Part shown: positions 4,940-35,788 of the stretch, one piece after another | How the letters are laid out: each line of letters begins with the position of its first letter | Numbering within the stretch: position 1 is the first letter of the stretch | IMG/VR virus record: IMGVR_UViG_2740891816_000001 | Coordinates: 1,621-65,620 of that record | Source: a virus | Taxonomy: Duplodnaviria; Caudoviricetes | Reading direction: 5' to 3' (one strand) | Length of the DNA: 64,000 nt | Notes under the pieces: generated by a model | Told to the model about the DNA's origin: nothing | The model's database searches: none | What the model saw: the letters and a program-made list of their open reading frames with translations, nothing else | Made by a program: the position numbers and the translations under genes

Positions 4940-5251
4940 TTATGCTTCTTCGGCGTCGAGCCGTGATGCTTGGCGTTGGCCAATGGCGTAGAGTTCTTCC
5001 GCCACGTTTTCGTTAACTTCGATTTTGTGGCGCGAACGAAGCGCCTCTCTTGCTCCGTCCGGGCCAAGCGAGTGAACGTAGCGCAGAGATCCGGCCATCA
5101 CGGACGCCTGCTCGGTGTCCTCAGTCCAGGCCATTAGATCGGCAAGCATCTGCTTTTCGCCCTGACGCACACGGTGCCGTAATTCTTCCTCGCCGCGCTC
5201 CTTGCGTTTCGCCGCGCTCTTTGCTGACCGCGTTTGTTGATCCATGGCCAT
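4940..5251 (-). CDS. Conserved Pseudomonas phage protein (homolog at 56786-57160)
   Basis: ORF; similar to the second copy in this window. Confidence 0.75.
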   Translation of the reverse strand: MAMDQQTRSAKSAAKRKERGEEELRHRVRQGEKQMLADLMAWTEDTEQASVMAGSLRYVHSLGPDGAREALRSRHKIEVNENVAEELYAIGQRQASRLDAEEA

Positions 5252-5320
5252 GGCCTACCTCTTCTATTCCGCTGGCCGGCAGTGCGAGCCAGGTTTGACG
5301 TTTGCGTTGCTGGATGCGGG

Positions 5321-5791
5321 CTATGCGGCGCATGAATCGACCTTCACCTGGTGCCAGGCGCCGACGGCTTCGAATATCCGCGCTGCGTGCGCCTCGTCCA
5401 GAGATATCGCTTCCGGGATGGCAATCCAGCCCGAAGCCACCATCTGGCTTTGATTGGCCTCGTCGCGCAGCTTCTTGTAGCAATGCTCGATCATGTCTTC
5501 CAGGTGGTCCGAGAGGTAAACGCCATCGGGCGCTACCTCCACCGACTTGCTGTACCGGTCGCCGCGGGCGTCGATGCAAAGCGCGCTGAGGTAGATCGTC
5601 CACCGGTGGGGAATGCCGCAGACGGCCTGGCCAATCTTCCCGGGCGCGATGTTCTTGAGCGACTTGTAATTGATCATGCCCTGGCGACCGCTGGGGCCGA
5701 TGTTCACCACGGCGACGTGATTGGAGGCCAGCAGTGAGCGGCACGACCGGGCGATGCGCGCCTGGAGGTTGTGTGCCTTGCGCTTGCTCAT
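5321..5791 (-). CDS. Conserved Pseudomonas phage protein (remnant homologs at ~57242-57607 and ~62700-62845)
   Basis: ORF; SGRQGMINYKS/IAPGKIGQAVCGIPHRWTIY repeated in other copies. Confidence 0.8.
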   Translation of the reverse strand: MSKRKAHNLQARIARSCRSLLASNHVAVVNIGPSGRQGMINYKSLKNIAPGKIGQAVCGIPHRWTIYLSALCIDARGDRYSKSVEVAPDGVYLSDHLEDMIEHCYKKLRDEANQSQMVASGWIAIPEAISLDEAHAARIFEAVGAWHQVKVDSCAA

Positions 5792-6030
5792 AATGCCTCC
5801 GCGAGTTTGCGCAGAGCATTACGCTCGGCCCTTGAAATAGGGGGCTTGCGGCGCTTCAGGATGGTTTCGGGGTCAATCTTTTCCGAACGCTTGGCGGGGT
5901 CTGGATTAATCACCGGGCTTTTACCGATGGTGTATTTCCCACCTGCTGCCAGGTGTTGCTGGACCTGAAAGGAAAGCTCCAGGGCTTTCGCACGCCGAAA
6001 TTCGATGTCTGATTTTAGGTTGCTGATCAT
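5788..6030 (-). CDS. Phage hypothetical protein
   Basis: 80 aa ORF coupled to neighbours. Confidence 0.7.
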   Translation of the reverse strand: MISNLKSDIEFRRAKALELSFQVQQHLAAGGKYTIGKSPVINPDPAKRSEKIDPETILKRRKPPISRAERNALRKLAEAL

Positions 6031-6032
6031 TA

Positions 6033-6695
6033 TCAGGCTCCTAAGCGATGGGCCTGCGCCCGAGCTTTGTCCGCTACCTCATCAACCATGCGATTCAGTT
6101 CCAAGTTGAACTGGACCAGCTCTTTGTGCAGGTTGGCGATGTAGTCCTCATCGCGGTAAATCGTCTCGATATAGAGCTGACACTCTTCATCTTGGCGAGA
6201 ATCAAAGGACAGGAAGTCCCACCATTTTCGGCCCGTAACGAACATGCAGCCTTGGACCTGCGGCATGTGTTCCTCGGGCATGCCTTCGAGCCAAGTTCTG
6301 ACGTGTATCGCTTCGTTGAAGGGGCACTTCGATTCGGTGCCCCCGTCATCGCTGATAAGGCCGTCTGGCGAACATCCAAGCCAGTCGTACTTTGGGTGGA
6401 CGATGAACTCTGACGGTATGACGATGTTGCCCGTCAGCATCTCGTAGGCGTCTTGTGCCTTTTGCTCTTCGGTGTGGCCCCACTTTAAAGAGGCGCTGCT
6501 GACGTTGTGCTTGGACTTCTTTGCCAGCCGCTCGAAGCACAGCTCACGCATGTATGACGTGCGTGCGCCCATAGGCTCGCGCTTACCATTTTTGTCAGGC
6601 TTCCCCCAGGCCATCACGTCTTTAAAGCGGCTGGCTGTCACGCGCCCAGATCGGTCCGCACGCCACTTTTCTGTGCCCTGAAGCTCCGCTCTCAC
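6033..6695 (-). CDS. YqaJ/lambda-exonuclease family recombination nuclease
   Basis: W..R.GRVTASRF, WG..EE, GCSPDGL...ESKCP, QVQG.M motifs. Confidence 0.92.
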   Translation of the reverse strand: MRAELQGTEKWRADRSGRVTASRFKDVMAWGKPDKNGKREPMGARTSYMRELCFERLAKKSKHNVSSASLKWGHTEEQKAQDAYEMLTGNIVIPSEFIVHPKYDWLGCSPDGLISDDGGTESKCPFNEAIHVRTWLEGMPEEHMPQVQGCMFVTGRKWWDFLSFDSRQDEECQLYIETIYRDEDYIANLHKELVQFNLELNRMVDEVADKARAQAHRLGA

Positions 6696-7684
6696 TACGC
6701 AGCCTCCTCTGAATGGGACTGGTCACCGCTGGGGCCCGTTATGTCGGTAAAGTCGGCATCGACGGTAGCCGCCAAGCTTTTTAGGGCTTCGTGGCATTCC
6801 AGGCCGATCGCTGCGCGCTGCTTCGGCTTGAGACCTGCCCAGGCGGCCGCGTAGGCGTCGATGTCCTGCTGCCTTGCAACGACCAGGAGGTCTGCGAATA
6901 CGCCGTCTATTTCAGGCGATGGGGATTTGGGGCCAAACGAAACGCCAGCGGCGGCAGCGCTGTTTGCGGCTTGTTTTGTTGGAGTGATATCAATCTCGCC
7001 GCCGTATGAATCCTCGAATTCATCGGGCGTATAAACGCCAAGGATCACGTCAGGACAGAAGAGGCGTGCCCACTTCTTGGTCACCAAGTAGGCGATCTGT
7101 TGTTTGGGGTCTTCCGCCCAAAGCGTAGAGTTGCGCGTGCGGACCTGGGTCAGCAGAAGCTCCAGAGTGCGTGGCTCGTCTTCGCCCCGAAAGGTCGCCC
7201 AAACCTTGATGCCGAGCCCTTTTTCATCGTCAAAGCTCCAGGCGGGAACGCGATATTTTTTAAACTCGCCAGTGTCCTCATCCTTCTTGGTCTTACTGGT
7301 AACTTCGCGCATCTTCCCGATGACGTTTTCCCAAGCGCCGAACCATTCAAAGTTCAATCGACCTTTGACTGGCGCCTTGGCGGTGATCACTGCGTTAACA
7401 AGCTGCGCCTCGTAGCTCAATGCGCCGCCGTTGACGATGAACGTTTTCTGCGCCACAGCGAAGGGGTTCATTTGCCACTGCATTGCTTGAAGCACCACCG
7501 CCATGCAGTCGGCTTGGTTCCCCTTAAGGTGTTTCGGGACGGTTGTCACTCCCTTCGACATCATCAGCGCGAGGTCGCTCATCGACCGCATGGTGCCTGG
7601 GTCGAGGATGAGCGCGGCCGCGTTGTGCGATGGATCGTGATAAGTGGCGAGGCCGGTTTGTGCTTGGGTGTCTGTATCGGTCAT
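6695..7684 (-). CDS. recT: RecT-family single-strand annealing protein
   Basis: ADCMAV..QA.QW.MNPFAVAQKT, YEAQLVNAVI, W..DPKQQIAY; adjacent to exonuclease. Confidence 0.88.
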   Translation of the reverse strand: MTDTDTQAQTGLATYHDPSHNAAALILDPGTMRSMSDLALMMSKGVTTVPKHLKGNQADCMAVVLQAMQWQMNPFAVAQKTFIVNGGALSYEAQLVNAVITAKAPVKGRLNFEWFGAWENVIGKMREVTSKTKKDEDTGEFKKYRVPAWSFDDEKGLGIKVWATFRGEDEPRTLELLLTQVRTRNSTLWAEDPKQQIAYLVTKKWARLFCPDVILGVYTPDEFEDSYGGEIDITPTKQAANSAAAAGVSFGPKSPSPEIDGVFADLLVVARQQDIDAYAAAWAGLKPKQRAAIGLECHEALKSLAATVDADFTDITGPSGDQSHSEEAA

Positions 7685-7737
7685 TGCGCTCTCCGTGGCC
7701 GACGTGGAGTGGGTCGGCCGGCAGATGGAAAGGATGG

Positions 7738-8886
7738 TTAGAAGCGGGTGGCCCGCAGCCAATCGCGAGCAGTGTCGATAGTCACGTCGAAGCCGAGCGC
7801 TACAACCTCGACAATGTCGTCAGCCGGGGGAGTGGTCGGGTCCACGTCGATGGATTCAACGGAGACGGCGACTACGGCAACAGGGGCGGTTTCAGCCGGA
7901 GTGGCAGTGACAGCGGCCACTGGCGCAGGCGCGGTAGCCTGGGCGCGCAGGCGGGCAAGTTCTTCCTGGTCTCGCTGATACTGGGCTTCGCGCTCGCGCT
8001 GCTGGCGTTGTTGCTCTTCCTGCTGTTCACGCTGCTGGCGTTGCTGTGCCTCCATATCGCGGCGCTGCTGGTCCAGTTCGTCCTGCTGCTGCTTCAACCG
8101 CTTGCGGTCTTCCTCAGCTCGCTGCTTACGTAGCTCCTCGGCTTCGGCGTCGGCGATGCGTTGTTTCTCGCGCAATTCATCTAGTTCTTTCTGCTGGGCC
8201 AGCAACTTAGCAGCAGCTTCTTCTCGCTCAGCGGCAGACTTGAACAGCGCTTCCAGTTGCTCAATGGCGTTGTCGCGAGCGATGGTGCCTTCGGCTTCAA
8301 ATTCGCCATATTCTTCGGGCAGGATCACCGACTCTTTGACACCCTGCAAAATGCTGGAGACGTCTGCGGCGCTGCGGCTTGCATAGGCGGCGGCGACAGA
8401 ACTGAAACGAGTAATTTTTGCCCGGATGGCTTCGACACGCTCAGCCTCGACACGCTCGCGCTCTGCCTTGGCATCAGCTATACGCTTTTCTTCGGCCTTG
8501 ATCGCTTCATCGACAGGCTCTTCAATTGTCAGCACACGAGTCCTGAGTGTTTCACCGAATTCCTTGACTTGATTGACGCGAGCCTGAGCTTCTTTGACCT
8601 TCTGCTGATATGGCACCAATGCGGTTTTGGTGGTCTTATCCAGGGCGTAGCGCACATCGCGGATATCGACGCGAACTTCCTTCGCATTCGCCAAGCCCTC
8701 ACTCGTCGAGCAGTCAACGACCAGCTTCGCGTAGGTGGTCTCCAGGCGAACGATCTGTTCTTCGTGCGGCCGATACTCGGCGATGTCGGTGACCGCTACC
8801 GTAGGGGATAGGTTTTTTTGCGCGCCTTCAGCTTCGTTCATTTCGAGCGGTTCTTGTGCGTGTGCTTGTTTGGTATTTTTGGACAT
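7738..8886 (-). CDS. Long coiled-coil phage protein linked to the recombination module
   Basis: E/Q/R/A-rich heptads; position upstream of recT. Confidence 0.75.
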   Translation of the reverse strand: MSKNTKQAHAQEPLEMNEAEGAQKNLSPTVAVTDIAEYRPHEEQIVRLETTYAKLVVDCSTSEGLANAKEVRVDIRDVRYALDKTTKTALVPYQQKVKEAQARVNQVKEFGETLRTRVLTIEEPVDEAIKAEEKRIADAKAERERVEAERVEAIRAKITRFSSVAAAYASRSAADVSSILQGVKESVILPEEYGEFEAEGTIARDNAIEQLEALFKSAAEREEAAAKLLAQQKELDELREKQRIADAEAEELRKQRAEEDRKRLKQQQDELDQQRRDMEAQQRQQREQQEEQQRQQREREAQYQRDQEELARLRAQATAPAPVAAVTATPAETAPVAVVAVSVESIDVDPTTPPADDIVEVVALGFDVTIDTARDWLRATRF

Positions 8887-8943
8887 GACTATCCCTCGCC
8901 GCGCCTGGCGCAGCATTGAAAGTAGTGGGGTTGGGTTGTGCCG

Positions 8944-9171
8944 TCAGGCGGCAGAAACGAGCGATGCGTTGTAGTCGGCGTAAATCTTGTCGATGAGTGC
9001 CCGGAAGTGCCGGTGTTCGTTTTCGTCGATAACCCGCAGCATGAAAGCGAGGGTGACGCATGATGTGGCCGCCGCACTGGCGTTTGGCTTGCCAAGTTCG
9101 AGAATCATGTTTTCGATCTCTCCCTCGATCCAGTTCACGGCGTTTAGGTGGTCCCGCTGAGTAGCGTTCAT
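8944..9171 (-). CDS. Phage hypothetical protein
   Basis: 75 aa ORF, GGAGG RBS, coupled. Confidence 0.65.
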   Translation of the reverse strand: MNATQRDHLNAVNWIEGEIENMILELGKPNASAAATSCVTLAFMLRVIDENEHRHFRALIDKIYADYNASLVSAA

Positions 9172-9398
9172 TGATCGCCTCCTGCCGGCAGACAGATCGC
9201 CTCCATCTGCGCCATCGCCAGCCCAATGCGCAGCTTGAGGCTGGCGCGCTCTTTGAGTCGGTGCTCCTCGCGTCCTGCCAAGTCCTCTGCTGTGTACTCA
9301 TGGAACAGGTCAGCGTGCTGCTGCTTCCCAAAGTTCGGCAAGTCCCAGCGCCTGTCGGATTCCCGGGCCTGAGCGCTATCCGCGTAACTGGTCGGCAT
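9168..9398 (-). CDS. Phage hypothetical protein (MPTSYADSAQARE...)
   Basis: ORF track, trimmed to the internal ATG. Confidence 0.6.
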   Translation of the reverse strand: MPTSYADSAQARESDRRWDLPNFGKQQHADLFHEYTAEDLAGREEHRLKERASLKLRIGLAMAQMEAICLPAGGDQ

Positions 9399-9642
9399 GT
9401 AGGCACTCCAGGCGCCGAGCGAGGGCGCAGGCTTCGTTGTGGTTGCGGCGGAACCCGATGACCTTGCCGGTACGGCTGTCCACCACATGGAAGAAGTCGC
9501 GGCCTGCAGGCTTCACCATCATCCGGAAGGTGACCGCCGGCTCAGGTCGCCCAATCAGCCGGTAGAACTCGGCAGTGGCGATACGGGAGCGCTGATGCAG
9601 GCCGTCGACGATGTCGCGGCGCGATTGGATGCTGTGGTGCAT
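9376..9642 (-). CDS. Phage hypothetical protein
   Basis: GGAGG RBS; 88 aa. Confidence 0.7.
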   Translation of the reverse strand: MHHSIQSRRDIVDGLHQRSRIATAEFYRLIGRPEPAVTFRMMVKPAGRDFFHVVDSRTGKVIGFRRNHNEACALARRLECLHADQLRG

Positions 9643-9661
9643 GGTCGCCTCCAGGATGGCG

Positions 9662-9847
9662 TTATTCAGTGGGAAGAGGTGGGAGCGGCATCCAGTGACT
9701 TGGATCGCCGTACCAGAAGCACCATCCGAGAGTTTTGTCGTACAGCCACTCAGTGACCTGCATCTGCCCGTACTCGAACAGGCACAGGTAATCGCGCTTC
9801 TCGCCTTCTGGCGGTAGCCGGTCGCTGCACTTGATCCAATTGCTCAT
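9662..9847 (-). CDS. DUF551-family phage protein
   Basis: WIKCSDRLP ... SHWMPLP.LP signature. Confidence 0.85.
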   Translation of the reverse strand: MSNWIKCSDRLPPEGEKRDYLCLFEYGQMQVTEWLYDKTLGWCFWYGDPSHWMPLPPLPTE

Positions 9848-9868
9848 GGAGACCTCCAGTATTTGGGG

Positions 9869-10060
9869 TTAGGCGGTGGCTGGCAGGGCTTCACGAAAGC
9901 GCGACGGGCTCCAGTCGCAAGCCTCATCAGCAGGGATGTGGCCGAACATCAGCGTGCAGCGGCGGCAATGCACGCAGTCGCCGCAGGTCTTGCCCTCGGG
10001 CAGATTCATTTGGTCAGCGTTGTCTGCCGACCGTGGATATGGCTTTCTTTGCTCGCTCAT
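9869..10060 (-). CDS. Small Cys-rich protein (CGDCVHC..C), first gene of the leftward early operon
   Basis: 63 aa ORF with GGAG RBS. Confidence 0.65.
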   Translation of the reverse strand: MSEQRKPYPRSADNADQMNLPEGKTCGDCVHCRRCTLMFGHIPADEACDWSPSRFREALPATA

Positions 10061-10282
10061 GAATGACTCCGTGGACTTGGTTCACCTGTATTCGTCAACA
10101 CTCATGCCTCCCGCTGGTTGCCGATGGGCGCGGGGGAGGAGTGCTGACGTAATAGAGGCGGGGGAAGGGCGGCTGCGGGAGTGTTGGCAGAAGAAGGTCA
10201 ACAGTCTGCTAGGATTCAAGCCGCTGTTCGGGAGAAAGGCTGATCCTTTTGCCCGCTATGAATGACTACTTAGGGAAAAGAT

Positions 10283-10801
10283 ATGTCGGTGTACTCAGTT
10301 ACCATCCCCTGTTTTGCGCAAATGCTGCGAGCGTTATCGGCTCTTTTGTCTAAGGGCGAGGCCGCCGCTTTGGAGCGCGGTTATGACCCGCAAATTCTGC
10401 TTGGCGCTCGACTAGCACCTGATATGCACGATCTGGCCCGGCAAATTCAGTACGCTTGCACTCAAGCCCAGGAGGCGGTGCAGCGACTTACACAGCGGCC
10501 GGTTGGCTCGCTCACTCCTCCGGAAAACTTGGCGGCAGCGAAGGAGCTAATCGAACGCACTTTGGCTGTTCTTGATTCAGCGGACCGCGCTCAAATAGAG
10601 GAAGGGGCTGAGCGTCAAATCGCTATTGAGTTACCAAATGGCATGGCCTTCGATATGACCGGCAGCGAATACGCTGTGAACTGGGCTACTCCACAGTTCT
10701 ACTTTCACCTGGTTACGGCTTACAACATCTTGCGCCATAACGGTGTACCTCTCGGGAAAGCCGATTATGTACAGCACATGTTTGCTTACCTGCGTCAGTA
10801 A
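10283..10801 (+). CDS. DUF1993-family protein (DinB-like helical bundle), moron
   Basis: LAPDM..L..Q, PQFYFHLVTAYNILRHNGVPLGKADY. Confidence 0.85.
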   Translation: MSVYSVTIPCFAQMLRALSALLSKGEAAALERGYDPQILLGARLAPDMHDLARQIQYACTQAQEAVQRLTQRPVGSLTPPENLAAAKELIERTLAVLDSADRAQIEEGAERQIAIELPNGMAFDMTGSEYAVNWATPQFYFHLVTAYNILRHNGVPLGKADYVQHMFAYLRQ

Positions 10802-11294
10802 CCTCGCTGTTTGAAGCCCGGTAAAACACCCAGGCCCGCTACTGGCGACGGCCTGGGTTCGTTGCGTCAGCGGTGTGGCCCGTTGCCCGCTGCTGATTGC
10901 AGGGCTGGCCGGGGTGGGCGGCGAGCTTCCTCCTCACGGCGTCAAACAGCATCTGTTCGCCGTGGATCACAGGTCCTTACAACATGCACGCTACAGCTCT
11001 GAATGCCCGATTGATTGGGGCAGGGTGCATGAGGTCCGGCGTTCCCAGCCGAGGCTATCGGGATCGCTAATTCAAATCTTTTGGAGCTGGCCGTGACCCG
11101 CTACTGGCGTCGGTCACCGGCTTGAATCAAATGTTCGTCCAGCCGCGGGCCTTTCGGCTTGTTCTCCCGCTGGATAACTGTTCTTGGCGCTTTACGCTGC
11201 ACGCCCGGGTCAGTTGCCAACCCTCTGAACCGTTTAGGCCGGTTCATCGCTGCCTTTGAATCTGGGCCGGTGGTGATCCGGCAAGGGGTGTCGC

Positions 11295-11303
11295 TAAAGA
11301 GCG
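11295..11303 (-). promoter_or_regulatory. boxA-like antitermination element CGCTCTTTA
   Basis: Matches the lambda/rrn boxA consensus, about 25 nt downstream of the predicted pL start. Confidence 0.55.
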
Positions 11304-11332
11304 GCGCAGCTTTCGCTGCTGGCTTGAGATGA

Positions 11333-11374
11333 AATATAAGTCAGCTTATTTGATGCGTCAATAAGTGTGCTTAT
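11333..11374 (-). promoter_or_regulatory. pL promoter (TTGACG-17-TATATT) overlapped by two operators ATAAG-N4-CTTAT (11336-11349, 11361-11374)
   Basis: Sigma70 spacing; the same palindrome recurs between cI and cro. Confidence 0.85.
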
Positions 11375-11393
11375 ATATTTTTCTGCAGGCGAT

Positions 11394-11417
11394 AAAAAGC
11401 CCGCTCAGTGGCGGGCT
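11394..11417 (-). terminator. Rho-independent terminator after the DUF1654-like gene
   Basis: AGCCCGC-loop-GCGGGCT-T5 on the minus strand. Confidence 0.75.
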
Positions 11418-11420
11418 CAT

Positions 11421-11672
11421 TTACACGTCGCAGTACTCGCGCCAGCCGATCCTGACTGCGCCACCTTCCAAGTGCTCAATCCGGACACCGGCGGTTTCAC
11501 TGATCTCATCAAGCAGTCGTTTCCAGTCCTCAGGGCTTTCGTGATCCAGCCTCGCCACCGTCACCGCCTGCACCTTTTGAACGCCTGGCGCGGCAATCAG
11601 CGCTTGCAGGCGCCGACCTGTGGCTTCGTAGGAAGAGGTCATTTGCGAGGTAGAAAAAGCAGGGCGAGACAT
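11421..11672 (-). CDS. DUF1654-like protein, SOS-box preceded
   Basis: SSYEATGRRLQALIAAPGVQK ... W..LLDEISE..GV.I ... VRIGW pattern; start at ATG 11672. Confidence 0.75.
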   Translation of the reverse strand: MSRPAFSTSQMTSSYEATGRRLQALIAAPGVQKVQAVTVARLDHESPEDWKRLLDEISETAGVRIEHLEGGAVRIGWREYCDV

Positions 11673-13841: not shown

Positions 13842-14084
13842 TCACCTCATCCGAACGCCATAGAAGTGGTTCAGCGCTATCAGCTCAAACGCAGCCACGA
13901 AAACGCAGAGCACAACGAAGCCAGGGCTGAAGACCCGCTTGCGGTTTGAACCCCAGCCAAGCCCGGCCGCGTCGGAGTAGCCGGGGATCATCATAAGCAC
14001 CGCCAGCCAAGCAATGACCCCGACCTTGCTCCAGAAGCTCTGCTCTCGCCATGAGGTCGACGGCTTTCCAAGGGCGGAGGGCAT
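13842..14084 (-). CDS. Small two-TM membrane protein translationally coupled to cI
   Basis: TGATG overlap with the cI stop; two hydrophobic segments. Confidence 0.65.
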   Translation of the reverse strand: MPSALGKPSTSWREQSFWSKVGVIAWLAVLMMIPGYSDAAGLGWGSNRKRVFSPGFVVLCVFVAAFELIALNHFYGVRMR

Positions 14085-14743
14085 CAGTAAAACTTCTGCA
14101 GTGCCTGCACGACGACCCCAACGATCCGACAGTTCTCGTCGACCGCTTCGATTGGGTAGCTTGGGTTCAGCGGCTTCAGGAACAGCCGGCCGCCGTCGCT
14201 CACGAGCTTCTTGAATGTCGCTTCGTTGCTGTCCCGCAGCTTGGCCACGACCAGCTTACCTGGCGCAACCTCGGCTTCGGTATCGACTAGGATCAGGGTG
14301 CCCTCGGTGACACTCTGGCCTGCAGGCGCCGTCATCGAGTCGCCTTTCACCTTTAGCCAAAACGCTGTGCCCTTGGAGTCGTACTCCGAAAACTCATAGC
14401 TGTCCGAGAATCCGGCTGGGTAGGGCTCAACAGCCTCCGCCCAGGCGCCGGCGGCTACCCAGCTGATTACTGGATAGCGGAATGATTTTGTGGGTTGGGC
14501 GGCGATGGAGATGTTTGACTCGGCAGCGCTCACACCTGTCATTGGCCCGGTATTTTCGGAGAGCCAAATAGCGTTCACACCACACACATGGGCGATCTTC
14601 GGTAGGTGAGCGCTTTGAAGGTTCTTTCCGGTCTCCAGCTGGGAGATTACCGGTTGCTCAACACCCACTTTTAAGGCGAGCGCCTTCTGCGTCAGCTTGG
14701 CGTGGTTGCGTGCGGTTTTGATTCGTTCGGCGAGTGTGCTCAT
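14084..14743 (-). CDS. cI: CI repressor (HTH + S24 autopeptidase)
   Basis: HTH TQKALA.KVGVEQPVISQLE; VAAG cleavage site; GDSM Ser and TFKKL Lys. Confidence 0.95.
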   Translation of the reverse strand: MSTLAERIKTARNHAKLTQKALALKVGVEQPVISQLETGKNLQSAHLPKIAHVCGVNAIWLSENTGPMTGVSAAESNISIAAQPTKSFRYPVISWVAAGAWAEAVEPYPAGFSDSYEFSEYDSKGTAFWLKVKGDSMTAPAGQSVTEGTLILVDTEAEVAPGKLVVAKLRDSNEATFKKLVSDGGRLFLKPLNPSYPIEAVDENCRIVGVVVQALQKFY

Positions 14744-14816
14744 CAGCTGAAATTTATAAGTTCCCTTATCGGCTTGCAAATAAGTTTCCTTCTACTTAGG
14801 ATATAAGCAGGCTTAT
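14744..14816. promoter_or_regulatory. oR switch: operators at 14756-14769, 14780-14793 (imperfect), 14803-14816; divergent pR and pRM
   Basis: ATAAG-N4-CTTAT palindromes at 23-24 bp spacing; TTGCAA-17-TAGGAT rightward, TTGCAA-17-TAAATT leftward. Confidence 0.8.
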
Positions 14817-19695: not shown

Positions 19696-20165
19696 TGACC
19701 GACAAGATCAGCGTCAACTGCCAGGCCAAGCTCTCCGAGGCCATCACTTGCCTAACCACCATGTACCGCGACAAGAAGTTCGTTGTGGTCTCGCTTCGAC
19801 CTGGCAAGGACCGCACGCTCGACCAGAACGCCCTGTGGTTCGCGATGTACAGGCGCATATCCGAGATGACCCAGATAGGCGACGCGGCCGACGCCCGTCG
19901 CTACTGCAAATTGCACTTCGGTGTGCAGATCCTGCTGAACGAGGACGCCGGGTTCCAAGCTGAGTGGTATCGGGTTATGCGCCATCTGCCCTACGAAACG
20001 AAGCTGGCCATGATGGGGGAGTGCCATTTGTTCGGCCCGGATGGCTTCCCGGTGACCAGCCTGTTCAATCGCGCCCAGGGCGTCCAGTACACCGATCGCA
20101 TGGCCAATTACTTCACCGGCCAGGGCGTTGTCTTTGCCGATCTGCTGAGCAAGGAGGCCGCATGA
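19695..20165 (+). CDS. ninB: NinB-like recombination protein
   Basis: RTLDQNALWFAMY motif; nin region. Confidence 0.7.
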   Translation: MTDKISVNCQAKLSEAITCLTTMYRDKKFVVVSLRPGKDRTLDQNALWFAMYRRISEMTQIGDAADARRYCKLHFGVQILLNEDAGFQAEWYRVMRHLPYETKLAMMGECHLFGPDGFPVTSLFNRAQGVQYTDRMANYFTGQGVVFADLLSKEAA

Positions 20166-20374
20166 GCCCATTCAAGGAAAGCCCAGAGTTCACGCGCCAA
20201 CGGGAAATCGATGAGGCTCGCTGCCGTGCGTATGAGGCTTACGTTTCGCCATGGATGAACCGAGCTGCGCGCCGAACTGCAAGGGGCCGCATGCTGGTAG
20301 CGCAGGGAGAGGCGGCAGCGATGAAGGCCGAGATTGAAGTGCTGCGTCGCCAGGTTGAGGAGATGAGCGCATGA
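20162..20374 (+). CDS. Phage hypothetical protein
   Basis: ATGA-coupled on both sides. Confidence 0.6.
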   Translation: MSPFKESPEFTRQREIDEARCRAYEAYVSPWMNRAARRTARGRMLVAQGEAAAMKAEIEVLRRQVEEMSA

Positions 20375-20952
20375 GCCTCTCCGTGAAACAACCCAAGCCC
20401 AAGACCTGCAAGAACCCAGCATGCAGGGCCTCATTCGTCCCGCAGCGCCTCGGGCAGAACGTCTGCAACTACACCTGCGGCCTGGTCATCAAGGACGTCC
20501 ACCAGGAGAAGGCGCGCAAGTCGCTGGCCCAGGTTGAGCGCCGCGAGATCAAGGTCCGCAAGGAGAAGCTGAAGAGTAGGGCGGATCATGCGCGCGACAC
20601 GCAGAAAGCATTCAACGAATGGGTGCGCCTACGAGACGCCGATCTGCCTTGCGTGAGCTGTGGTCGCCACCACGACGGCCAATATCACGCGGGGCATTAC
20701 AGGACAGTCGCAGCCAACCCGGAGATCCGATTCGAGCCTTTGAATGTCCACAAACAATGCGCCCCCTGCAATAACCACAAGTCGGGCGACATTGTGAATT
20801 ACCGCATTGAGTTGGTGAAGCGGATCGGCGCCGAGGCCGTGGAGTGGCTTGAAGGTCCTCATGAGGCCAAGAAGTACACCGTCGATGAGTTGAAGGCGAT
20901 CACCGCCGAATACCGGGCAAAAACCAGAGAGCTGAAGAGGGCTGCAGCATGA
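20371..20952 (+). CDS. ninG: NinG/Rap recombination endonuclease
   Basis: Q.AFNEWVRLRD, CVSCG, AGHYR, RF...N.HKQC..CN. Confidence 0.92.
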   Translation: MSLSVKQPKPKTCKNPACRASFVPQRLGQNVCNYTCGLVIKDVHQEKARKSLAQVERREIKVRKEKLKSRADHARDTQKAFNEWVRLRDADLPCVSCGRHHDGQYHAGHYRTVAANPEIRFEPLNVHKQCAPCNNHKSGDIVNYRIELVKRIGAEAVEWLEGPHEAKKYTVDELKAITAEYRAKTRELKRAAA

Positions 20953-21215
20953 CGCAGATTGCGCAAATCACTGGCGGCGCAAGTAGGCCATCAAAGGGCT
21001 GGCTGAAGCCTATGTTCCCGATCACGGGCAAGGCCCACTACTTCAATCAGGAAAAGGAATTCGCTGCGATCACAGCGCAAGGTAGGGCATATTTCTGGCG
21101 CTCGATCTGCGGAATCGACACGGTAAGCACGGACAAAATGCCGATGTTCGAGCCTGGCAACTGGGACCGCTGCAAAAAATGTGAACTGAAATTGGCTCGG
21201 AGGGCCGCAGCATGA
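20949..21215 (+). CDS. Phage hypothetical protein (Cys motifs)
   Basis: Coupled ORF, SICG..RCKKC. Confidence 0.65.
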   Translation: MTQIAQITGGASRPSKGWLKPMFPITGKAHYFNQEKEFAAITAQGRAYFWRSICGIDTVSTDKMPMFEPGNWDRCKKCELKLARRAAA

Positions 21216-21757
21216 CCTATCGAAATGTTGTTTCAGCAGTAGTTCGGGCGCTGGCCGCCGAGACCATCAACTCCGCCGGCGGCTGCGACTTCGAGCCCAA
21301 GGTGCAGTGCGCCAAGCAGAAGGGGGAGATCGTCGGCAAGGAGGCGGCGTTTCTCCAGGACTGCTGGGTGTTCGGTAGGTTGCACAAGTCGCTCACCCCA
21401 GCGCACTGGCGGGCGCTGGTGGCGAAGTACTCAACCCATACCGACCGCAAGCATGCAGCGATCGCGGAGCTGACTCGCGTGATGCGTTCGCCTGCGCCGG
21501 AGCGGTTCCTGCATTGCGCTGTGGTTACCTGGGCAATGCCTCGGTTGCCAGGCGTGGACGGGAAGCGCTCCACCAACGTCCTACCGGCCGGCTGGTACGA
21601 GATGGACAACTGGTCAAACGAACCGCATCCGATTAAGACCCAGGAGCGGTGGAGGCGTGACATTCGCAAGGCGCTGGAGCGGGAAGTGGATCAGGCTTTG
21701 GTGTCCGCTCAAGCCCTGCTGGATGCGGATGGACTCATTGATACACAAGCCGCTTGA
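21212..21757 (+). CDS. Late antiterminator Q-like protein
   Basis: Last nin-region gene, followed by a promoter and terminators. Confidence 0.65.
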   Translation: MTYRNVVSAVVRALAAETINSAGGCDFEPKVQCAKQKGEIVGKEAAFLQDCWVFGRLHKSLTPAHWRALVAKYSTHTDRKHAAIAELTRVMRSPAPERFLHCAVVTWAMPRLPGVDGKRSTNVLPAGWYEMDNWSNEPHPIKTQERWRRDIRKALEREVDQALVSAQALLDADGLIDTQAA

Positions 21758-21783
21758 CGACGAGTGAGCCAATGAGCCATTAT
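21754..21783 (+). promoter_or_regulatory. pR'-like late promoter TTGACG-18-CATTAT with a TGAGCCA direct repeat in the spacer (candidate Q-binding element)
   Basis: Position after Q; repeat lies between -35 and -10 as for lambdoid Q-binding elements. Confidence 0.55.
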
Positions 21784-21821
21784 CTGCCCATCCTGTCATT
21801 CCTGCGTGTGTAGGAGTTAGG

Positions 21822-21898
21822 AAAAAAGCCCGGCCACTGTGTCGGGCTTTTTTATGCCTGCCAGAAACGCAAAAGCCCCGACAAGTTCGGGGCTTTTT
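21822..21898 (+). terminator. Two tandem terminators (tR'-like; 21822-21853 and 21871-21898), both bidirectional-looking
   Basis: GC stems flanked by A and T tracts. Confidence 0.8.
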
Positions 21899-22047
21899 CG
21901 TTGGTGCGAGAAAAGAGAGGGCGACTCCAGGAAGTGTCTGACCACTTCCTGTAGTCACCAGATCGCAGAACCAGCCTGCAAGCCAGCCAAGGCCCCCTTG
22001 CTCTCGAGAGCGGGACGGAGCCTAGCAGAAATCAAAAGGCATTGCAG

Positions 22048-22206
22048 ATGTTGAAAGAATTCAGATGCGGTAACTGCAAAAGACTTCTCGCCCGAACGGG
22101 TGGGTTTACAGAGCTCCAGATCAAATGTTCCCGATGTGGGACGCTGAATCATGTGAAGGCCGCGAGCCTCGAGCAATCGCCCATGAGCGCCATACGCCCA
22201 ATATAG
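22048..22206 (+). CDS. com: Mu Com-like zinc-finger regulator (52 aa; missed by the ORF track)
   Basis: MLKEFRCGNCKRLLAR...LQIKCSRCGTLN read manually. Confidence 0.88.
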   Translation: MLKEFRCGNCKRLLARTGGFTELQIKCSRCGTLNHVKAASLEQSPMSAIRPI

Positions 22207-22244
22207 AGGCCTGAACTTAAATCAGCTCAGTAACGGAGTTTAAA

Positions 22245-23207
22245 ATGGAAAACGCAAACTCAGCGTCTCAAACCTTGCAAGATCTTTGGACTCAAGTGCA
22301 ACCGGTGGATAACACCGGCATGCTTAGGCGCGTAGTTTTTGCTCAAGGCAAGTTCTATGCGGCTGGTGGCAACGGTCTTCCCACAACCACTCAGCTTGTC
22401 AGCGGAAACGCAACTGGTACAGCGTGGACCAAGCTTAAGGGCGTCGTCACCTCTGATAGCGGAAAGGTCCTCAATGACCTGTACTGGAACGGTCTTGGGA
22501 CACAGCTTCAAGCCGTTTCTCAATCCGGCAATGTGGCCTACGGCAGCACAGCACGCCCTGAAAGGGATTGGACAAACATTACGGCAACTGTTCGCGCGTC
22601 CGGAGACTTGCAAGGCATTGTGTATTATCAGCCAATTTCTGGCATTGACACGACCTGGATACTGGTTGGGTCTAACGGTAAAGTCTTTTCCCGTTATGGC
22701 GATTGGTCAGGCCAGGTGGAGCGCACTACGACCTTCACTTCTAGCGAGACTGTGTACTGCGTCAACGTCATTGGCGTTTTTGTGTTGGTTGCGGGATCGA
22801 ATGGGAAGCTGCTTAGCGCTGTGAAGATGGCGACGGAGAATTCGCAATCATTCTCGACCGTAACCAGCACCTTCGGCACTAGCACCATCCTTTCCATGAA
22901 GCTTTGCAACGGGAAAATGTTTATCGTTGGTGCGGATGGCAAGATGGCATATTCATCCGATGGGCTTACCTGGACTGCTGTTGCAGATACCAGTTTCGGT
23001 GGAACCATCATCCGCGACATTGCTTACGGTAATGGCAAGTATGTAGCTGTCGGCGACGGCGGCAAGACAGCCGTTTCCGAGGATGGGATCGGCTGGGTTC
23101 AGCAAGCCAACACTTTCGCAGGAACCGATATCCGGAGCGTCGCCTACGGTAACGGCAATTTTGTAGCTGTTGGTGCAGGCGGCAAGATTGCTTACTGGAC
23201 TCCATGA
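22245..23207 (+). CDS. Seven-bladed beta-propeller protein, no signal peptide
   Basis: Seven ~40-49 aa repeats, e.g. IRDIAYGNGKYVAVGDGGKTAVSEDGIGW; GGAG RBS. Confidence 0.8.
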   Translation: MENANSASQTLQDLWTQVQPVDNTGMLRRVVFAQGKFYAAGGNGLPTTTQLVSGNATGTAWTKLKGVVTSDSGKVLNDLYWNGLGTQLQAVSQSGNVAYGSTARPERDWTNITATVRASGDLQGIVYYQPISGIDTTWILVGSNGKVFSRYGDWSGQVERTTTFTSSETVYCVNVIGVFVLVAGSNGKLLSAVKMATENSQSFSTVTSTFGTSTILSMKLCNGKMFIVGADGKMAYSSDGLTWTAVADTSFGGTIIRDIAYGNGKYVAVGDGGKTAVSEDGIGWVQQANTFAGTDIRSVAYGNGNFVAVGAGGKIAYWTP

Positions 23208-23230
23208 TCTTCTATCTCCTTGCGTAATAG

Positions 23231-23256
23231 AGCCCAGCCGTCGCGCTGGGCTTTTT
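23231..23256 (+). terminator. Terminator AGCCCAGC-loop-GCTGGGCT-T4
   Basis: Stem plus U tract; similar copies near 42238, 58798 and 59218. Confidence 0.8.
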
Positions 23257-23622
23257 CATTTCTGATTCAGGCTCGTCACAGCCAGGGTGGCCTTTCGGGG
23301 GATGCCTGGACGCTGATAAGCCGGTAGTGCAGCGCTACGGAAAAACACCGGCAGCCCGCGCGCTCTGTTCACACCTGACTTCCAGAGTGGCGCGATACCA
23401 GATCAGCGAGATCGATGCATTGGGGTGTCGACGCTGGGAAGGTCTTTGGCTGGCAGCGTGGGAAGACACGCGCACCTATTCAGGGCCTCGACATTGATCG
23501 GGGCCTTCTTGTTTTCGGCCCCGCCACACCCTTCGCTCTGAGCTGGGAGTGCCGCCGGGGCTGATCTATTCCGCAGGTCATGGCCTGTCATATTCATAAC
23601 TCCCTGACGGGGAGGAACCGAG

Positions 23623-23955
23623 ATGTCCAACATGCCAGACAAACCAGACACATGGGCGATTGCGCTTGCGTGGTTGAGCCAGCATTCGCCAATCCTCTAT
23701 GCGGCTGCGCTGTCCTGCGCCATGGCCGTCCTGCGCATCACCTACGGCGGCGGCACGCGGCGCCAGATGCTGGTGGAGGGCGCGATCTGTGGCGGCCTTA
23801 CCTTGACCATCATCAGCGGCCTGGACTTCTTCGGTCTGCCCCAGAGCATGGCCACCTTCGCAGGTGGCTGGGTAGGCTTTCTGGGTGTGGAGAAGATCCG
23901 GTCGATAGCTGACAGGGTGACTGACTTCAAACTGCCCAGTCGCAAGGTCGATTAA
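23623..23955 (+). CDS. Holin, lambda S family, possible dual start (M1-S-N-M4)
   Basis: Three hydrophobic segments, MPDKP start, G.VGFLGVEKIR. Confidence 0.88.
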   Translation: MSNMPDKPDTWAIALAWLSQHSPILYAAALSCAMAVLRITYGGGTRRQMLVEGAICGGLTLTIISGLDFFGLPQSMATFAGGWVGFLGVEKIRSIADRVTDFKLPSRKVD

Positions 23956-23995
23956 TCCGCGCCACGTTTTCGAATGCGCCAAATCGTGGTGCGAT

Positions 23996-24337
23996 CTAGT
24001 CGTGATCGCTATAGGCCGTCACCACCACCGGCTTCACGGGGAACCACAACCACTCGCCGTCTTGAAGCGGTTCATGGAAGCTGCGCGTTACCTCGAACAT
24101 ATGCTCACTTCGTAGATCATGCGAAGGCCTCAGCTCAATTAAGAAGCTCCCCGGCCAATTTGAGAACGGAGCGGTTCGAATCCCTAGCCAGCCCGACCTC
24201 TGGACAATTGCGCCAGTGTTGTCTGCGCCCGCATAGAGTGACCGCTCGCCAGGGGCGAAATGAAACTGGACGTCGGTTAGCTGCTCTGGCTCAACATTTT
24301 CGGTGTGAATGACAATCCCGGCCTTGTTGTGATCCAT
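23996..24337 (-). CDS. Hypothetical moron (113 aa)
   Basis: Opposite-strand ORF between holin and the next late gene. Confidence 0.5.
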   Translation of the reverse strand: MDHNKAGIVIHTENVEPEQLTDVQFHFAPGERSLYAGADNTGAIVQRSGWLGIRTAPFSNWPGSFLIELRPSHDLRSEHMFEVTRSFHEPLQDGEWLWFPVKPVVVTAYSDHD

Positions 24338-24430
24338 GCGATTGCACCTTGGTTATGTGTCGAGACGTATCAATACCGCCGTCGGGCGAGCCAATCAAGT
24401 TATGCGGCGCTTTCAAAAAAGGGGAAGCAG

Positions 24431-24874
24431 ATGACGACCATTGCCTACAAGGACGGCGTGATCGCCTATGACTCTCGCTGCACACGCGGAACGACCATCA
24501 CTGATGACGACTGCGAGAAGCTGCAGACGGTGAAGGGTGTCCATTTCCTTTGTACCGGTGCGACCTGCGACTTCGATGCATTGATCGCGGCCTATTTTGG
24601 CACTGCCGCGTCGGCACCCGTTGAGGCATCCGGCTACGCGATAGATGGCGGCACGCTCTGGCTGATCGGCCATGACGATAAGACTGGTTTCTGGAAGAAC
24701 AGAATCAGACTTGATCGTTCTGACGCTATTGGCAATGGATCGCCATTCGCCCTTACCGCAATGGACATGGGTGCAACTGCTGCCGAAGCCATTGAGATGG
24801 CCAAGAAGCGGGACACATGCACTGGCGGCACGATCCGAACATTAGTAGTCGGAGCACCGTCTGTGGTGAGTTGA
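24431..24874 (+). CDS. Proteasome-beta/HslV-like Ntn hydrolase
   Basis: M-TTIAYKDGVIAYDSR N-terminal Thr; IGNGSPFA..AMD.GA.A.EA...A...D..TGG. Confidence 0.8.
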   Translation: MTTIAYKDGVIAYDSRCTRGTTITDDDCEKLQTVKGVHFLCTGATCDFDALIAAYFGTAASAPVEASGYAIDGGTLWLIGHDDKTGFWKNRIRLDRSDAIGNGSPFALTAMDMGATAAEAIEMAKKRDTCTGGTIRTLVVGAPSVVS

Positions 24875-24917
24875 AGGGTGCTATCGTTACGCCACCTCTT
24901 CTCTCGGGTGACCGGCC

Positions 24918-25184
24918 ATGGCTACTGGCGTGCTGATAAGAAATTGCATTGATGTACAGTTCGACAACGTTTCAATGGATGGTATGGATACCGCATTTGA
25001 GATTTATGACTCTGACGACATCAGGATGAATGACATTCGACTTGAGTCGACTCGAACAGCGGTAGTTGGTGAGCGAGTCAGAGGTCTGACTGTGAATGGT
25101 ATGTCGCATAGCCAGGCGGGTTGGTATCCAAGGCCTACTCCTCTAGCGGTCGCCGTGAGGAGGATCGCTCATGGCTATGTTTGA
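24918..25184 (+). CDS. Mini right-handed beta-helix-like protein (3 x 22 aa coils)
   Basis: TGVLIRNCIDVQFDNVSMDGMD / TAFEIYDSDDIRMNDIRLESTR / TAVVGERVRGLTVNGMS. Confidence 0.65.
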   Translation: MATGVLIRNCIDVQFDNVSMDGMDTAFEIYDSDDIRMNDIRLESTRTAVVGERVRGLTVNGMSHSQAGWYPRPTPLAVAVRRIAHGYV

Positions 25185-25434
25185 TCTCAAGGACTCTGAA
25201 GATATAAAACTAACCGAGTGCCATACCGACTCATCAAAATTAGTTCAGGGTGAGGGGGTGAAACGGCTTGAGGTTACTGACTCTTCCGCGTTTGCAACGA
25301 GGCCAGATTCTCCATTGCCGCCCAAGCGCTCCATCCTTCGGTTCTTTGCCGAGAACCTTTTAACATCTCTTCTTGGTCTAGTCGTGGCTTTGATTGCCGG
25401 GTATCTCTTATGGAGGCTTGGCTGGACCGGGTAA
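25171..25434 (+). CDS. Paralogous beta-helix-like protein with a C-terminal TM anchor
   Basis: FDLKDSEDIKL aligns with FEIYDSDDIRM; LLTSLLGLVVALIAGYLLW TM. Confidence 0.65.
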   Translation: MAMFDLKDSEDIKLTECHTDSSKLVQGEGVKRLEVTDSSAFATRPDSPLPPKRSILRFFAENLLTSLLGLVVALIAGYLLWRLGWTG

Positions 25435-25461
25435 GCAACAACTAAAATGAAGGAGGGGGGG

Positions 25462-26085
25462 ATGAATAGGCCATACCCTCCATCGTTGCTGCTCGAGCTA
25501 TCCGAGCTATCCGAATTCGGTATCCGACTTACTCCAGCCCCCGAAGTGTGGGACTGGCTCCAGTGCGAGATCCTCGCCGACACCGGGAGCATCCACAACG
25601 AAGACCATGCCCACCTACTGGATGCAGACATTCGGATCATGTGGGCGTCGTCGAGCTTCGAGAAACAGGGGCGCACAGTCCTGGGCCAGGCCGAACAGGT
25701 AGCGTTCCGCGCCGGCGGCTGGCAGAAAGCACGGATGGAGCAGCAGATGCGTGATTGGTTCGGCGATGTGCCGGCCTTCATCATCACCTTGGCTGCTGAC
25801 TACTGCGCCCAGTGCAGCGACCTTGAGTTCTGCGCCCTGATCGAGCACGAGCTGTATCACCTGGCTCACGCGACCGACAAGTACGGTCAACCAGCATTCA
25901 CCCAAGACGGCGCACCGAAGATCAAGCTGCAGGGCCACGACGTGGAAGAGTTCGTCGGTGTGGTCCGCCGCTACGGTGCAAGCCCTGACGTTCAAGCGTT
26001 GGTGGATGCTGCAAACAGTCCTGCTGAGGTGGGGAAATTGAACATTGCGAGGGCCTGCGGAACCTGTCTGCTCAAGTTGGCCTGA
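25462..26085 (+). CDS. Putative phage metallopeptidase
   Basis: HELYH (HExxH), HDVEEF. Confidence 0.8.
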   Translation: MNRPYPPSLLLELSELSEFGIRLTPAPEVWDWLQCEILADTGSIHNEDHAHLLDADIRIMWASSSFEKQGRTVLGQAEQVAFRAGGWQKARMEQQMRDWFGDVPAFIITLAADYCAQCSDLEFCALIEHELYHLAHATDKYGQPAFTQDGAPKIKLQGHDVEEFVGVVRRYGASPDVQALVDAANSPAEVGKLNIARACGTCLLKLA

Positions 26086-26116
26086 TGTAAGACAGGCGTG
26101 AGACGGAATCTAACTT

Positions 26117-26578
26117 ATGGCAGCCCTGAAAAATGAGGTGAAGAGCTTCATCGTTCAGGCTTTGGCGTGTTTCGACACTCCGAGCCAGGTCTCACAAGCG
26201 GTGAAGCAAGAATTCGATGTGGACGTAACCCGGCAGCAGGTTGAGCAGCACGACCCAACAAAGCGCGCCGGCTCCCACCTGGCGCTCAAGTGGCAGACTC
26301 TGTTTCACGACACCCGCAAGCGATTCCGAGAAGAGACCGCCGAGATCCCGATCGCCAACCGCGCGTTCCGCCTGCGAGCCATGAACCGCTTCGTGGAGAA
26401 GGCCGAGACGATGAAGAACATCGGCCTGGCCATGCAGATCCTCGAGCAGGCAGCGAAAGAAACCGGCGACATCTACGTCAACCGGGCACGGAAGGAAGAG
26501 GCTGGTGACGAACCGGTGATCCCGACCCGTATCCAGGTCGACGTGGTAGATGCGAGGAAGCCGAATGCCGAGCCTTAA
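26117..26578 (+). CDS. terS: Terminase small subunit (DUF2280 family)
   Basis: FIVQALACFDTPSQV...EF; precedes terL. Confidence 0.85.
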   Translation: MAALKNEVKSFIVQALACFDTPSQVSQAVKQEFDVDVTRQQVEQHDPTKRAGSHLALKWQTLFHDTRKRFREETAEIPIANRAFRLRAMNRFVEKAETMKNIGLAMQILEQAAKETGDIYVNRARKEEAGDEPVIPTRIQVDVVDARKPNAEP

Positions 26579-30341: not shown

Positions 30342-30423
30342 CCGAACACATTCAATCAGCCGCCTCTGGGCGGTTTTTTATTGCCTGCAAAGCGGGCGAA
30401 ACATACCCAAGGGGTGCATCAAC

Positions 30424-31152: not shown

Positions 31153-31164
31153 GGGGAAATACTC

Positions 31165-32127: not shown

Positions 32128-32173
32128 TATTCACCCCAGGAAACGGTCGGCAACGGCCGCTACGGAGATTCCC

Positions 32174-32764: not shown

Positions 32765-32823
32765 TAATGCTGGCTGCCGGCGACCCGGCGGCCAATCTTC
32801 AAACCATTTCAGCGAGTTGACGC

Positions 32824-33614: not shown

Positions 33615-33633
33615 GAGTGCCCCGGAGGGTAAG

Positions 33634-35080: not shown

Positions 35081-35119
35081 CCTACCGCCGTCAGGCGGGC
35101 ACTCAAGAGGAAATACACC

Positions 35120-35779: not shown

Positions 35780-35788
35780 GGATTTCCC

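Follow-up and report, generated by a model that had tools for sequence, protein, structure and literature searches.

The pL leader and its structured core

The 64,000-nucleotide (nt) stretch of DNA analysed here (hereafter, the window) is part of a 65.6-kb virus record with a lambdoid layout (IMG/VR record IMGVR_UViG_2740891816_000001). On its minus strand, the repressor gene cI is followed by lysogeny-side genes, a terminator, the early-left promoter pL, a leader, and then RecT and other early genes. The subject of this study is the leader, which comparison of sequences identifies as an undescribed RNA family of Pseudomonas temperate phages and R-tailocin clusters. The family unit consists of an optional 5′ hairpin, boxA, a core of ~110–122 nt, a hairpin with the C-CAGUA-G apex (P5), and a long hairpin, P6. 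For this unit we tentatively favour, with somewhat less than even confidence, the role of a cis-acting antitermination RNA assisted by boxA and Nus factors, a function that we infer from its position and anatomy. The features of the locus down to the core are as follows.

11391–11417, minus strand: intrinsic terminator closing the cI-side lysogeny operon, AGCCCGC-CACUGA-GCGGGCU followed by UUUUAUC, directly 3′ of the DUF1654 gene
11333–11374, minus strand: pL promoter with two ATAAG-N4-CTTAT operators (11361–11374 and 11336–11349)
11306–11319, minus strand: 5′ hairpin GCAGC-GAAA-GCUGC, which opens the predicted transcript; its counterpart precedes boxA in relatives
11295–11303, minus strand: boxA, CGCUCUUUA, near-consensus
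11266–11282, minus strand: hairpin GCCGG-AUCACCA-CCGGC between boxA and the core, kept in phage-type relatives (alignment A2)
11137–11258, minus strand: core RNA, 122 nt, with four helices and a pseudoknot (covariance model R1, 125.6 bits, E 3e-28)
11246–11240/11232–11226, minus strand: core helix P1 (GAACCG/CGGUUC)
11223–11220/11210–11207, minus strand: core helix P2
11215–11211/11180–11176, minus strand: core pseudoknot AACUG/CAGUU, joining the P2 loop to the P3–P4 linker
11205–11201/11190–11186, minus strand: core helix P3 with the loop GCAGCGUAAA
11174–11166/11148–11138, minus strand: core helix P4 (CCAGC..GCC-GAAA-GGC..GCUGG)
11101–11247, minus strand: basic open reading frame (ORF) of 48 amino acids (aa), MNRPKRFRG..., overlapping the core, with its UAG stop in the loop of the first CAGUA hairpin

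Helices P1–P4 were derived from alignments A2 and A3 together with RNAalifold, and the pseudoknot was added to them. In the viral alignment A3 (54 distinct sequences), 99.1% of the cells are paired and 15 out of 30 pairs show compensatory changes; none of 500 shuffles reaches the observed compensation, and slid registers are paired at 22–49%. The bacterial alignment A5 (72 distinct sequences), which was fitted to the model and thus leans towards the structure, has 99.8% of the cells paired and compensatory changes in 12 out of 30 pairs, slid registers giving 22–48%. The support for the pseudoknot comes from few independent compensatory events, found in three divergent sequences (AACGG/CCGUU in one, CACUA/UAGUG in two). 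The segments GGCAGCGAUGA (the single-stranded 5′ segment of the core), UGGCAACUGA, GCAGCGUAAA, and CAGUUAU are unpaired and invariant in alignments A2 and A3. Frequent G–U pairs indicate that the folded strand is the pL-sense strand. By this covariation the core is a real structured, pseudoknotted non-coding RNA.

The window copy fits the R1 family, being recovered with P1–P4, the AACUG/CAGUU pairing, GGCAGCGAUGA, and GCAGCGUAAA. The single-sequence fold of the whole leader is uninformative (z −0.6). With the filters off, R1 finds one core copy in the window and the rest at the noise level; hence a further copy, be it in the pR operon or at another place of the window, was rejected as a candidate, and boxA is unique as well (its 8-mer GCTCTTTA has a single occurrence in the window).

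The leader is poor in ORFs, as the first-pass annotation of this DNA had described it, and its single basic ORF starts at the invariant AUG of the core. Since this ORF encodes 48 aa rich in Arg and Lys, is the first after pL, and has AGG 5 nt 5′ of the invariant AUG, and since a coding sequence (CDS) of 41 aa is annotated there in phage PseuP_224, one could read it as a short N-like arginine-rich antiterminator protein, the RNA structure being secondary. We regard this as very improbable and discarded the candidate, because stops and frameshifts interrupt the ORF in relatives: an in-frame stop lies within eight codons of the conserved AUG (at codons 5–8) in 31% of 217 distinct copies, the ORF lengths range from 4 to >99 codons, and indels of 1, 2, 10, 11, and 12 nt break the frame (alignment A3). 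Besides, substitutions in the core are compensatory in the helices rather than synonymous. By these comparisons the 48-aa ORF is not a conserved gene. It had been noted earlier that no N-like basic gene follows pL; this is right insofar as no conserved gene does, but a basic 48-aa ORF is there.

Several small "hypothetical protein" calls that overlap this RNA in deposited phage genomes are probably spurious. Two such CDS are WAK44840.1 (41 aa; L004 3041–3166, plus strand), the unconserved small ORF within the core, and UFJFPfDIW6_00038 (171 aa; L002 3804–4319, minus strand), annotated as a hypothetical protein on the strand opposite to module 2, which is described below.

Upstream of the leader, the −35 box TTGACG (11361–11356) and the −10 box TATATT (11338–11333) are separated by a 17-nt spacer and show 10 out of 12 matches in the scan; this and the other promoter and terminator assignments are based on consensus scans. 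The start of transcription would lie near 11326. The palindrome ATAAG-N4-CTTAT has five copies in 64 kb, compared with 0.4 expected, and is restricted to pL (two copies, over the −35 and −10 boxes) and the cI/cro intergenic region (three copies at 14756–14816, evenly spaced ~24 bp apart). As it is shared by pL and the cI/cro region, the palindromes are operators and the promoter is repressor-controlled; the promoter is a true pL. The repressor gene cI (14084–14779, minus strand) encodes helix-turn-helix (HTH) and S24 peptidase domains (Pfam) and is followed by four lysogeny-side genes, among them those of a superinfection-immunity/zinc-ribbon protein and a DUF1654 protein. The terminator at 11391–11417 coincides with a weak match of the Trp_leader terminator type in the Rfam scan. 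The cro-like and CII-like genes run rightward from 14832. On the other side of the leader, comparison with PHROGs gives the leftward early ORFs 9662–9847 and 9376–9642, so that the first leftward gene starts at 9847, and the interval from the leader to the early-left genes shows no sigma-70-like promoter in the consensus scan of 5000–10900.

At the 5′ end of the leader, the boxA reported earlier at 11295–11303 was confirmed on the minus strand, and in 149 out of 213 distinct related loci GCTCTTT[AG] precedes the core by a median of 28 nt. The GCCGG hairpin beside boxA is not present in tailocin-type copies. This hairpin and two more stems, GAACCG/CGGUUC and CCAGC..GCC-GAAA-GGC..GCUGG, are all located where they had been placed; the latter two, however, had been listed merely as further stems, while they are P1 and P4 of the core.

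Hairpins P5 and P6, module 2, and the inserted genes

The part of the locus 3′ of the core contains the following features.

11093–11117, minus strand: hairpin 1, i.e., P5, GUGACC-GA-CGC-CAGUA-GCG-GGUCAC, consisting of a stem, a 2-nt bulge, and CGC-CAGUA-GCG
10862–11073, minus strand: module 2, ~210 nt, with a C(UUCG)G / C(CUCG)G tetraloop hairpin, the stem CAUGCAC...GUGCAUG, and long invariant blocks
10822–10858 (stem 10858–10828), minus strand: hairpin 2, a second copy of P5, ACCCAGGCC-GU-CGC-CAGUA-GCG-GGCCUGGGU followed by GUUUUA, with an outer stem of 9 bp
10802–10827, minus strand: remnant of the 5′ half of P6, UUUUACCGGGCUUC, compared by eye with AUUUCACCGAUAGGCCUUC of relatives (L165, L003, L070)
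9876–10801, plus strand: two convergent inserted genes (a "moron"), namely, a DUF1993 gene at 10283–10801 (Pfam) and another gene, a 129-aa ORF, at 9876–10265

The 11-mer CGCCAGTAGCG is found at both CAGUA hairpins and nowhere else in the window, and each hairpin is the minimum-energy fold of its segment (−12.8 kcal/mol, z −1.5 for hairpin 1; −21.9 kcal/mol, z −3.7 for hairpin 2). As the z-score of hairpin 1 is unremarkable on its own, the case is based on comparison with relatives. A CAG(U/C)N pentaloop hairpin is present at the P5 position in 202 out of 218 distinct related loci, 201 of these 202 folding in this way, and the loops are CAGUA (157 copies), CAGUC (47), and CAGCA (10). The apical stems of P5 covary (GCGC/GCGC, CGC/GCG, CAC/GUG, GCAC/GUGC), and so does the outer stem of hairpin 2 among 11 homologues, e.g., one pair is AU in six and GC in five. 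The twin stem-bulge-CAGUA hairpins with the same apical 11 nt and different outer stems, which the first-pass annotation had described, were thus confirmed in their positions and folds, and the covariation claimed for them holds, with its decisive support coming from the comparison, that is, from the 202 loci and the covarying apical and outer stems. The twin hairpins are not the main element: the universally conserved part is the 122-nt pseudoknotted core, and two hairpins are seen because the inserted module 2 ends in a duplicate of P5.

The almost invariant pentaloop together with boxA brings to mind a nut-like site, with the C-CAGUA-G hairpins serving as boxB for a dedicated phage or host protein in an N-type complex with boxA and Nus factors; the two hairpin copies of the window would then bind two protein molecules. 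Single-stranded CAG motifs recur (GCAGCG twice, CAGUU, CAGUA), and the loop does not covary with the core, which fits protein rather than RNA recognition. Nevertheless, we consider such a site unlikely: there is no conserved candidate gene, the first downstream gene being variable; no activator is known from tailocin clusters (PMC4684702); one copy in three has the overlapping Arg-rich ORF disrupted; and boxA and the hairpin are ~170–200 nt apart, compared with ~8 nt in the lambda nut site.

Several candidate partners of the loop were rejected. A kissing or pseudoknot interaction between the CAGUA loop and UACUG, located at the 5′ base of P6, would comprise 5 bp in the tailocin type and 3–4 bp in others, and the loop variants CAGCA and CAGUC are uncompensated. 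A tertiary pair of the loop with the core was not borne out by mutual information, which reflects clade-level association with no Watson–Crick pattern. The reading of the bulge and the CAGU loop as similar to an iron-responsive element (IRE) finds no support in Rfam.

Module 2 lies between P5 and P6 in a subset of phages, with ten homologues among the fetched sequences (alignment A4), and its consensus fold has nine covarying pairs. It is also present in phages PseuP_222 and UFJF_PfDIW6, both of which lack the core and have the order promoter, hairpin, boxA, another structured first module of ~200 nt, module 2, CAGUA hairpin. Hence, the pL leaders of these phages are modular. The alternative first module contains CACUACUGGCG in PseuP_222 (L001 3860–3900) and CUACCGGCG in UFJF_PfDIW6 (L002 3840–3870), both nearly the reverse complement of CGCCAGUAG of the hairpin, which suggests possible long-range pairing or an inverted protein site.

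The base helix of P6 covaries as well (GCAUU/AAUGC, UUUUC/GAAAA, GUUUC/GAAAC, AUUUC/GAAAU); the base contains a bulged purine and a C(U/C)G/(U/C)GG step, and the duplex comprises ~17–20 bp. In most copies, the top of P6 with a U tract forms an intrinsic terminator. A terminator-like hairpin with a U tract is located 3′ of the core in 167 out of 208 loci (median +197), versus 63 out of 208 for a control window of equal size further downstream. About 20–30% of P6 copies have no U tract, and the ribosome-binding site of the first gene then follows ~10 nt after the end of P6; thus, local termination alone cannot be the conserved role.

The layout of promoter, structured RNA, and strong terminator, e.g., AAAAGCCCGGGCAACCGGGCUUUUU in the tailocin type, would also suit the gene of a small RNA (sRNA). 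An RNA of ~250–300 nt ending at P6 could act in trans, by base-pairing or as a protein sponge, or else P5 and P6 could be RNase III/E sites or 5′ stabilisers. The long P6 duplex with its conserved base and the similarity of the arrangement to lambda pR′–6S RNA–tR′ speak for this possibility, to which we nonetheless give little credence. As pL is the sole visible promoter of the operon behind it, readthrough is obligatory; copies that lack a U tract cannot end at P6; no target complementarity was found; and the promoter is repressed in lysogens.

Relatives have an intact P6 after hairpin 2, and then a gene. In the window, P6 appears to have been cut off by the insertion of the two plus-strand genes, which occupy the place of the 3′ half of P6 and of the first early gene in relatives. 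Because the inserted genes interrupt P6, the pL transcript crosses ~1.45 kb of untranslated RNA before the first gene; if there is no internal promoter, it traverses the leader (~520 nt) and then the inserted genes in antisense (~950 nt) before the ORF at 9847. Hairpin 2 resembles a terminator when read on the minus strand. Located 21 nt beyond the stop codon of the DUF1993 gene, which is convergent, it may double as the terminator of the two inserted genes.

Distribution in Pseudomonas phages and tailocins

Relatives usually have, in this order, the repressor gene, the promoter, boxA, the core, P5, P6 (often a terminator), and a variable first gene. A repressor gene of the S24 cI/PrtR type is located upstream on the same strand in 143 out of 179 loci, its median distance to the core being 217 nt. 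The first gene downstream may encode a holin (in mutS-linked tailocins), a Com-like zinc-finger protein, small LuxR-type HTH proteins, or other products. Since this gene varies, the function belongs to the transcript and not to one gene.

The blastn comparison with phage records yields patchy similarity in phages of Pseudomonas fluorescens, P. protegens, and P. syringae and in the Q8r1-96 tailocin record; the matches always lie just 3′ of the cI/prtR gene, and the best-conserved piece corresponds to window positions 11258–11137. The collections were searched for a pattern of two invariant motifs, GGCAGCGATGA ... GCAGSGTAAA, which occurs in at least 120 stretches in IMG/VR and at least 120 in the species-representative genome set; the counts of these scans are lower bounds. 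The core RNA is present in at least 120 viral contigs; it occurs both in lambdoid prophages and in R-tailocin clusters. Model R1 finds a single core copy in 98 out of 100 viral or phage loci and the core in 92 out of 100 genome loci; the remaining eight are chance matches of the pattern in unrelated metagenome-assembled genomes. Among the sampled Pseudomonas species genomes, 89 out of 151 contain the core, with one to three copies each (88 out of 150 without the unpublished genome G102).

Three loci labelled Gordonia sp. IEGM753 and Janthinobacterium sp. LPB2021202312-11-4 (L176, L186, L226) contain Pseudomonas-like cores scoring 135–136 and 127.6 bits; contaminating or mis-binned Pseudomonas contigs are a more likely explanation than true occurrence outside the genus. 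In phage Orimi01 (L007 3140–3280), a T-arm-like sequence, GGUUCGAAUCC, lies 3′ of the core. ARAGORN called no tRNA or tmRNA in the Orimi01 stretch or in the window, and a tRNA-like element at this place was rejected.

The comparison with Rfam that had been proposed for the leader was made, and the leader fits no Rfam 15 family: at the gathering threshold, the lone hit in the whole window is Proteo-phage-1, elsewhere; region 10600–11500 at E up to 10 yields terminator-type noise alone, and the tailocin-type copy L005 yields noise alone. With the filters off, the best R1 score in HK022 20000–36000 is 8.6 bits (E 0.7), the put sites themselves being neither located nor aligned. The earlier suggestion of an undescribed structured element in the position of N/nut or put therefore agrees with the lack of a match in Rfam 15 and in the HK022 early region. 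Full-text literature searches with the motifs and with tailocin or phage leader RNA found nothing relevant.

The sole Rfam hit of the window, the Proteo-phage-1 RNA motif (23276–23356, plus strand, 86.9 bits), is located between a 320-aa ORF (22245–23207) and genes starting from 23580, after NinG (20371–20952) and a phrog_3412 protein (21212–21757), roughly at the position of Q/pR′/6S RNA in lambda.

Function of the leader and comparison with known systems

If the leader is an antitermination RNA, the nascent RNA would stay attached to its own RNA polymerase and, together with host Nus factors recruited by boxA, make it resistant to intrinsic and Rho-dependent termination, so that the long operon behind the leader would be expressed once the repressor is gone. 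We favour this reading because it accounts for the map position, the presence of boxA, and the independence from gene content, as well as the P6 copies that are not terminators, the lack of an activator in tailocins, and the long untranslated stretch of the window, which otherwise would invite Rho; indeed, ~1.45 kb without translation offers Rho an ideal target. Alternatively, the leader may represent a factor-independent RNA class that reprograms RNA polymerase through a pseudoknotted fold unlike put.

Data on tailocins bear on this question. Tailocins of the putida and fluorescens groups are described with the PrtR/PtbA repressor alone and no PrtN activator (PMC4684702). In P. protegens CHA0, the prtR1–hol intergenic region comprises 516 bp, and a reporter with the whole of this region is expressed and is induced by mitomycin C by ~3 logs without PrtR1 and also without the whole tailocin cluster, which the authors ascribe to "other important mechanisms of regulation" (PMC12066065). 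Provided that the leader RNA is present in CHA0, no factor encoded by the cluster is needed to pass it.

The same induction can be seen as support for a sensor or attenuator. An aptamer-like core, riboswitch-like or gated by a host factor, would bind a metabolite or a host factor and set termination at P6, providing a second checkpoint before the lysis genes and tying prophage early, tailocin, or lysis expression to a DNA-damage or physiology signal independently of repressor cleavage. A complex fold with invariant unpaired segments and a terminator at a fixed distance in most copies (167 out of 208) would be expected of such an RNA, and it would explain the PrtR1-independent ~1000-fold mitomycin C induction of the P. 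protegens tailocin promoter region, with the same proviso for CHA0. On the other hand, no conserved alternative helix joining the core to the terminator was seen, alternative folds not having been searched for systematically; the terminator stems vary freely from subtype to subtype; ~20–30% of P6 copies have no U tract; and P6 of the window is interrupted. We therefore think a sensor improbable, though worth keeping in mind.

Several observations weigh against antitermination as well. About 30% of core copies have no boxA. Each phage has a single copy, and its pR operon has none, unlike the situation with nutL/nutR and putL/putR; the core resembles neither the HK022 early region nor any Rfam family. 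The constant spacing of the core, P5, P6, and the terminator would suit an attenuator, a sensor, a protein site, or an sRNA gene equally well. The simple consensus scan leaves room for internal promoters of the early-left genes. Finally, as P6 of the window is broken, either P6 is dispensable or this copy is impaired.

Whatever its mechanism, the RNA occupies the one control point at which commitment to lysis is decided in Pseudomonas prophages and R-tailocins. Well over half of the sampled Pseudomonas species have it, plant-associated and biocontrol groups among them. Termination resistance made by the RNA, or sensing of a second signal, would, if true, fill the activator gap of the putida and fluorescens tailocins. 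Antitermination by the leader, if confirmed, would constitute a third, structurally new class of phage antitermination RNA in addition to nut and put.

Lambda early antitermination depends on N and nut, and that of HK022, on the put RNA; the leader RNA would fill the role of either. Like putL and putR, it is a cis-acting candidate with structured hairpins, located at most a few hundred nucleotides from the start of an early transcript of the lambdoid kind, and no N-like protein gene follows either RNA. However, put comprises ~70 nt with two stem-loops and no pseudoknot, needs neither boxA nor Nus, and occurs in both the pL and pR operons, whereas the leader RNA has a 110–122-nt core of four helices and a pseudoknot, P5 and P6, and usually boxA, and occurs once per element. 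The similarity to lambda N/nut consists of the map position after the pL operators, boxA CGCUCUUUA, a pentaloop hairpin downstream, and the RecT operon behind. The differences are that there is no conserved N gene and, in the window, no nutR counterpart, that the loop is CAGUA and not the GNRA-like GAAAA, and that ~170–200 nt of structured RNA (~190 in the window) separate boxA from the hairpin in place of ~8 nt.

The leader of rrn antitermination (boxB–boxA–boxC; NusA/B/E/G, SuhB) similarly has a hairpin, boxA, and then conserved RNA, and protects a long untranslated transcript; by this analogy, host factors alone would suffice. The present RNA, in contrast, is carried by phages and tailocins, and the likeness to rrn leaders has been shown for boxA alone. 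The EAR RNA of Bacillales eps operons is also a structured RNA of ~120 nt within an operon, and it promotes readthrough of distal terminators, but it is unrelated in sequence and fold (no Rfam match), comes from another phylum, and has no boxA. The last parallel is lambda pR′–6S RNA–tR′, where a promoter, a short non-coding RNA, and a strong terminator directly precede a long lytic operon. There, the DNA-binding protein Q modifies the polymerase at the promoter, whereas no Q-like gene is linked to the pL considered here, and in this family the RNA itself is the conserved part.

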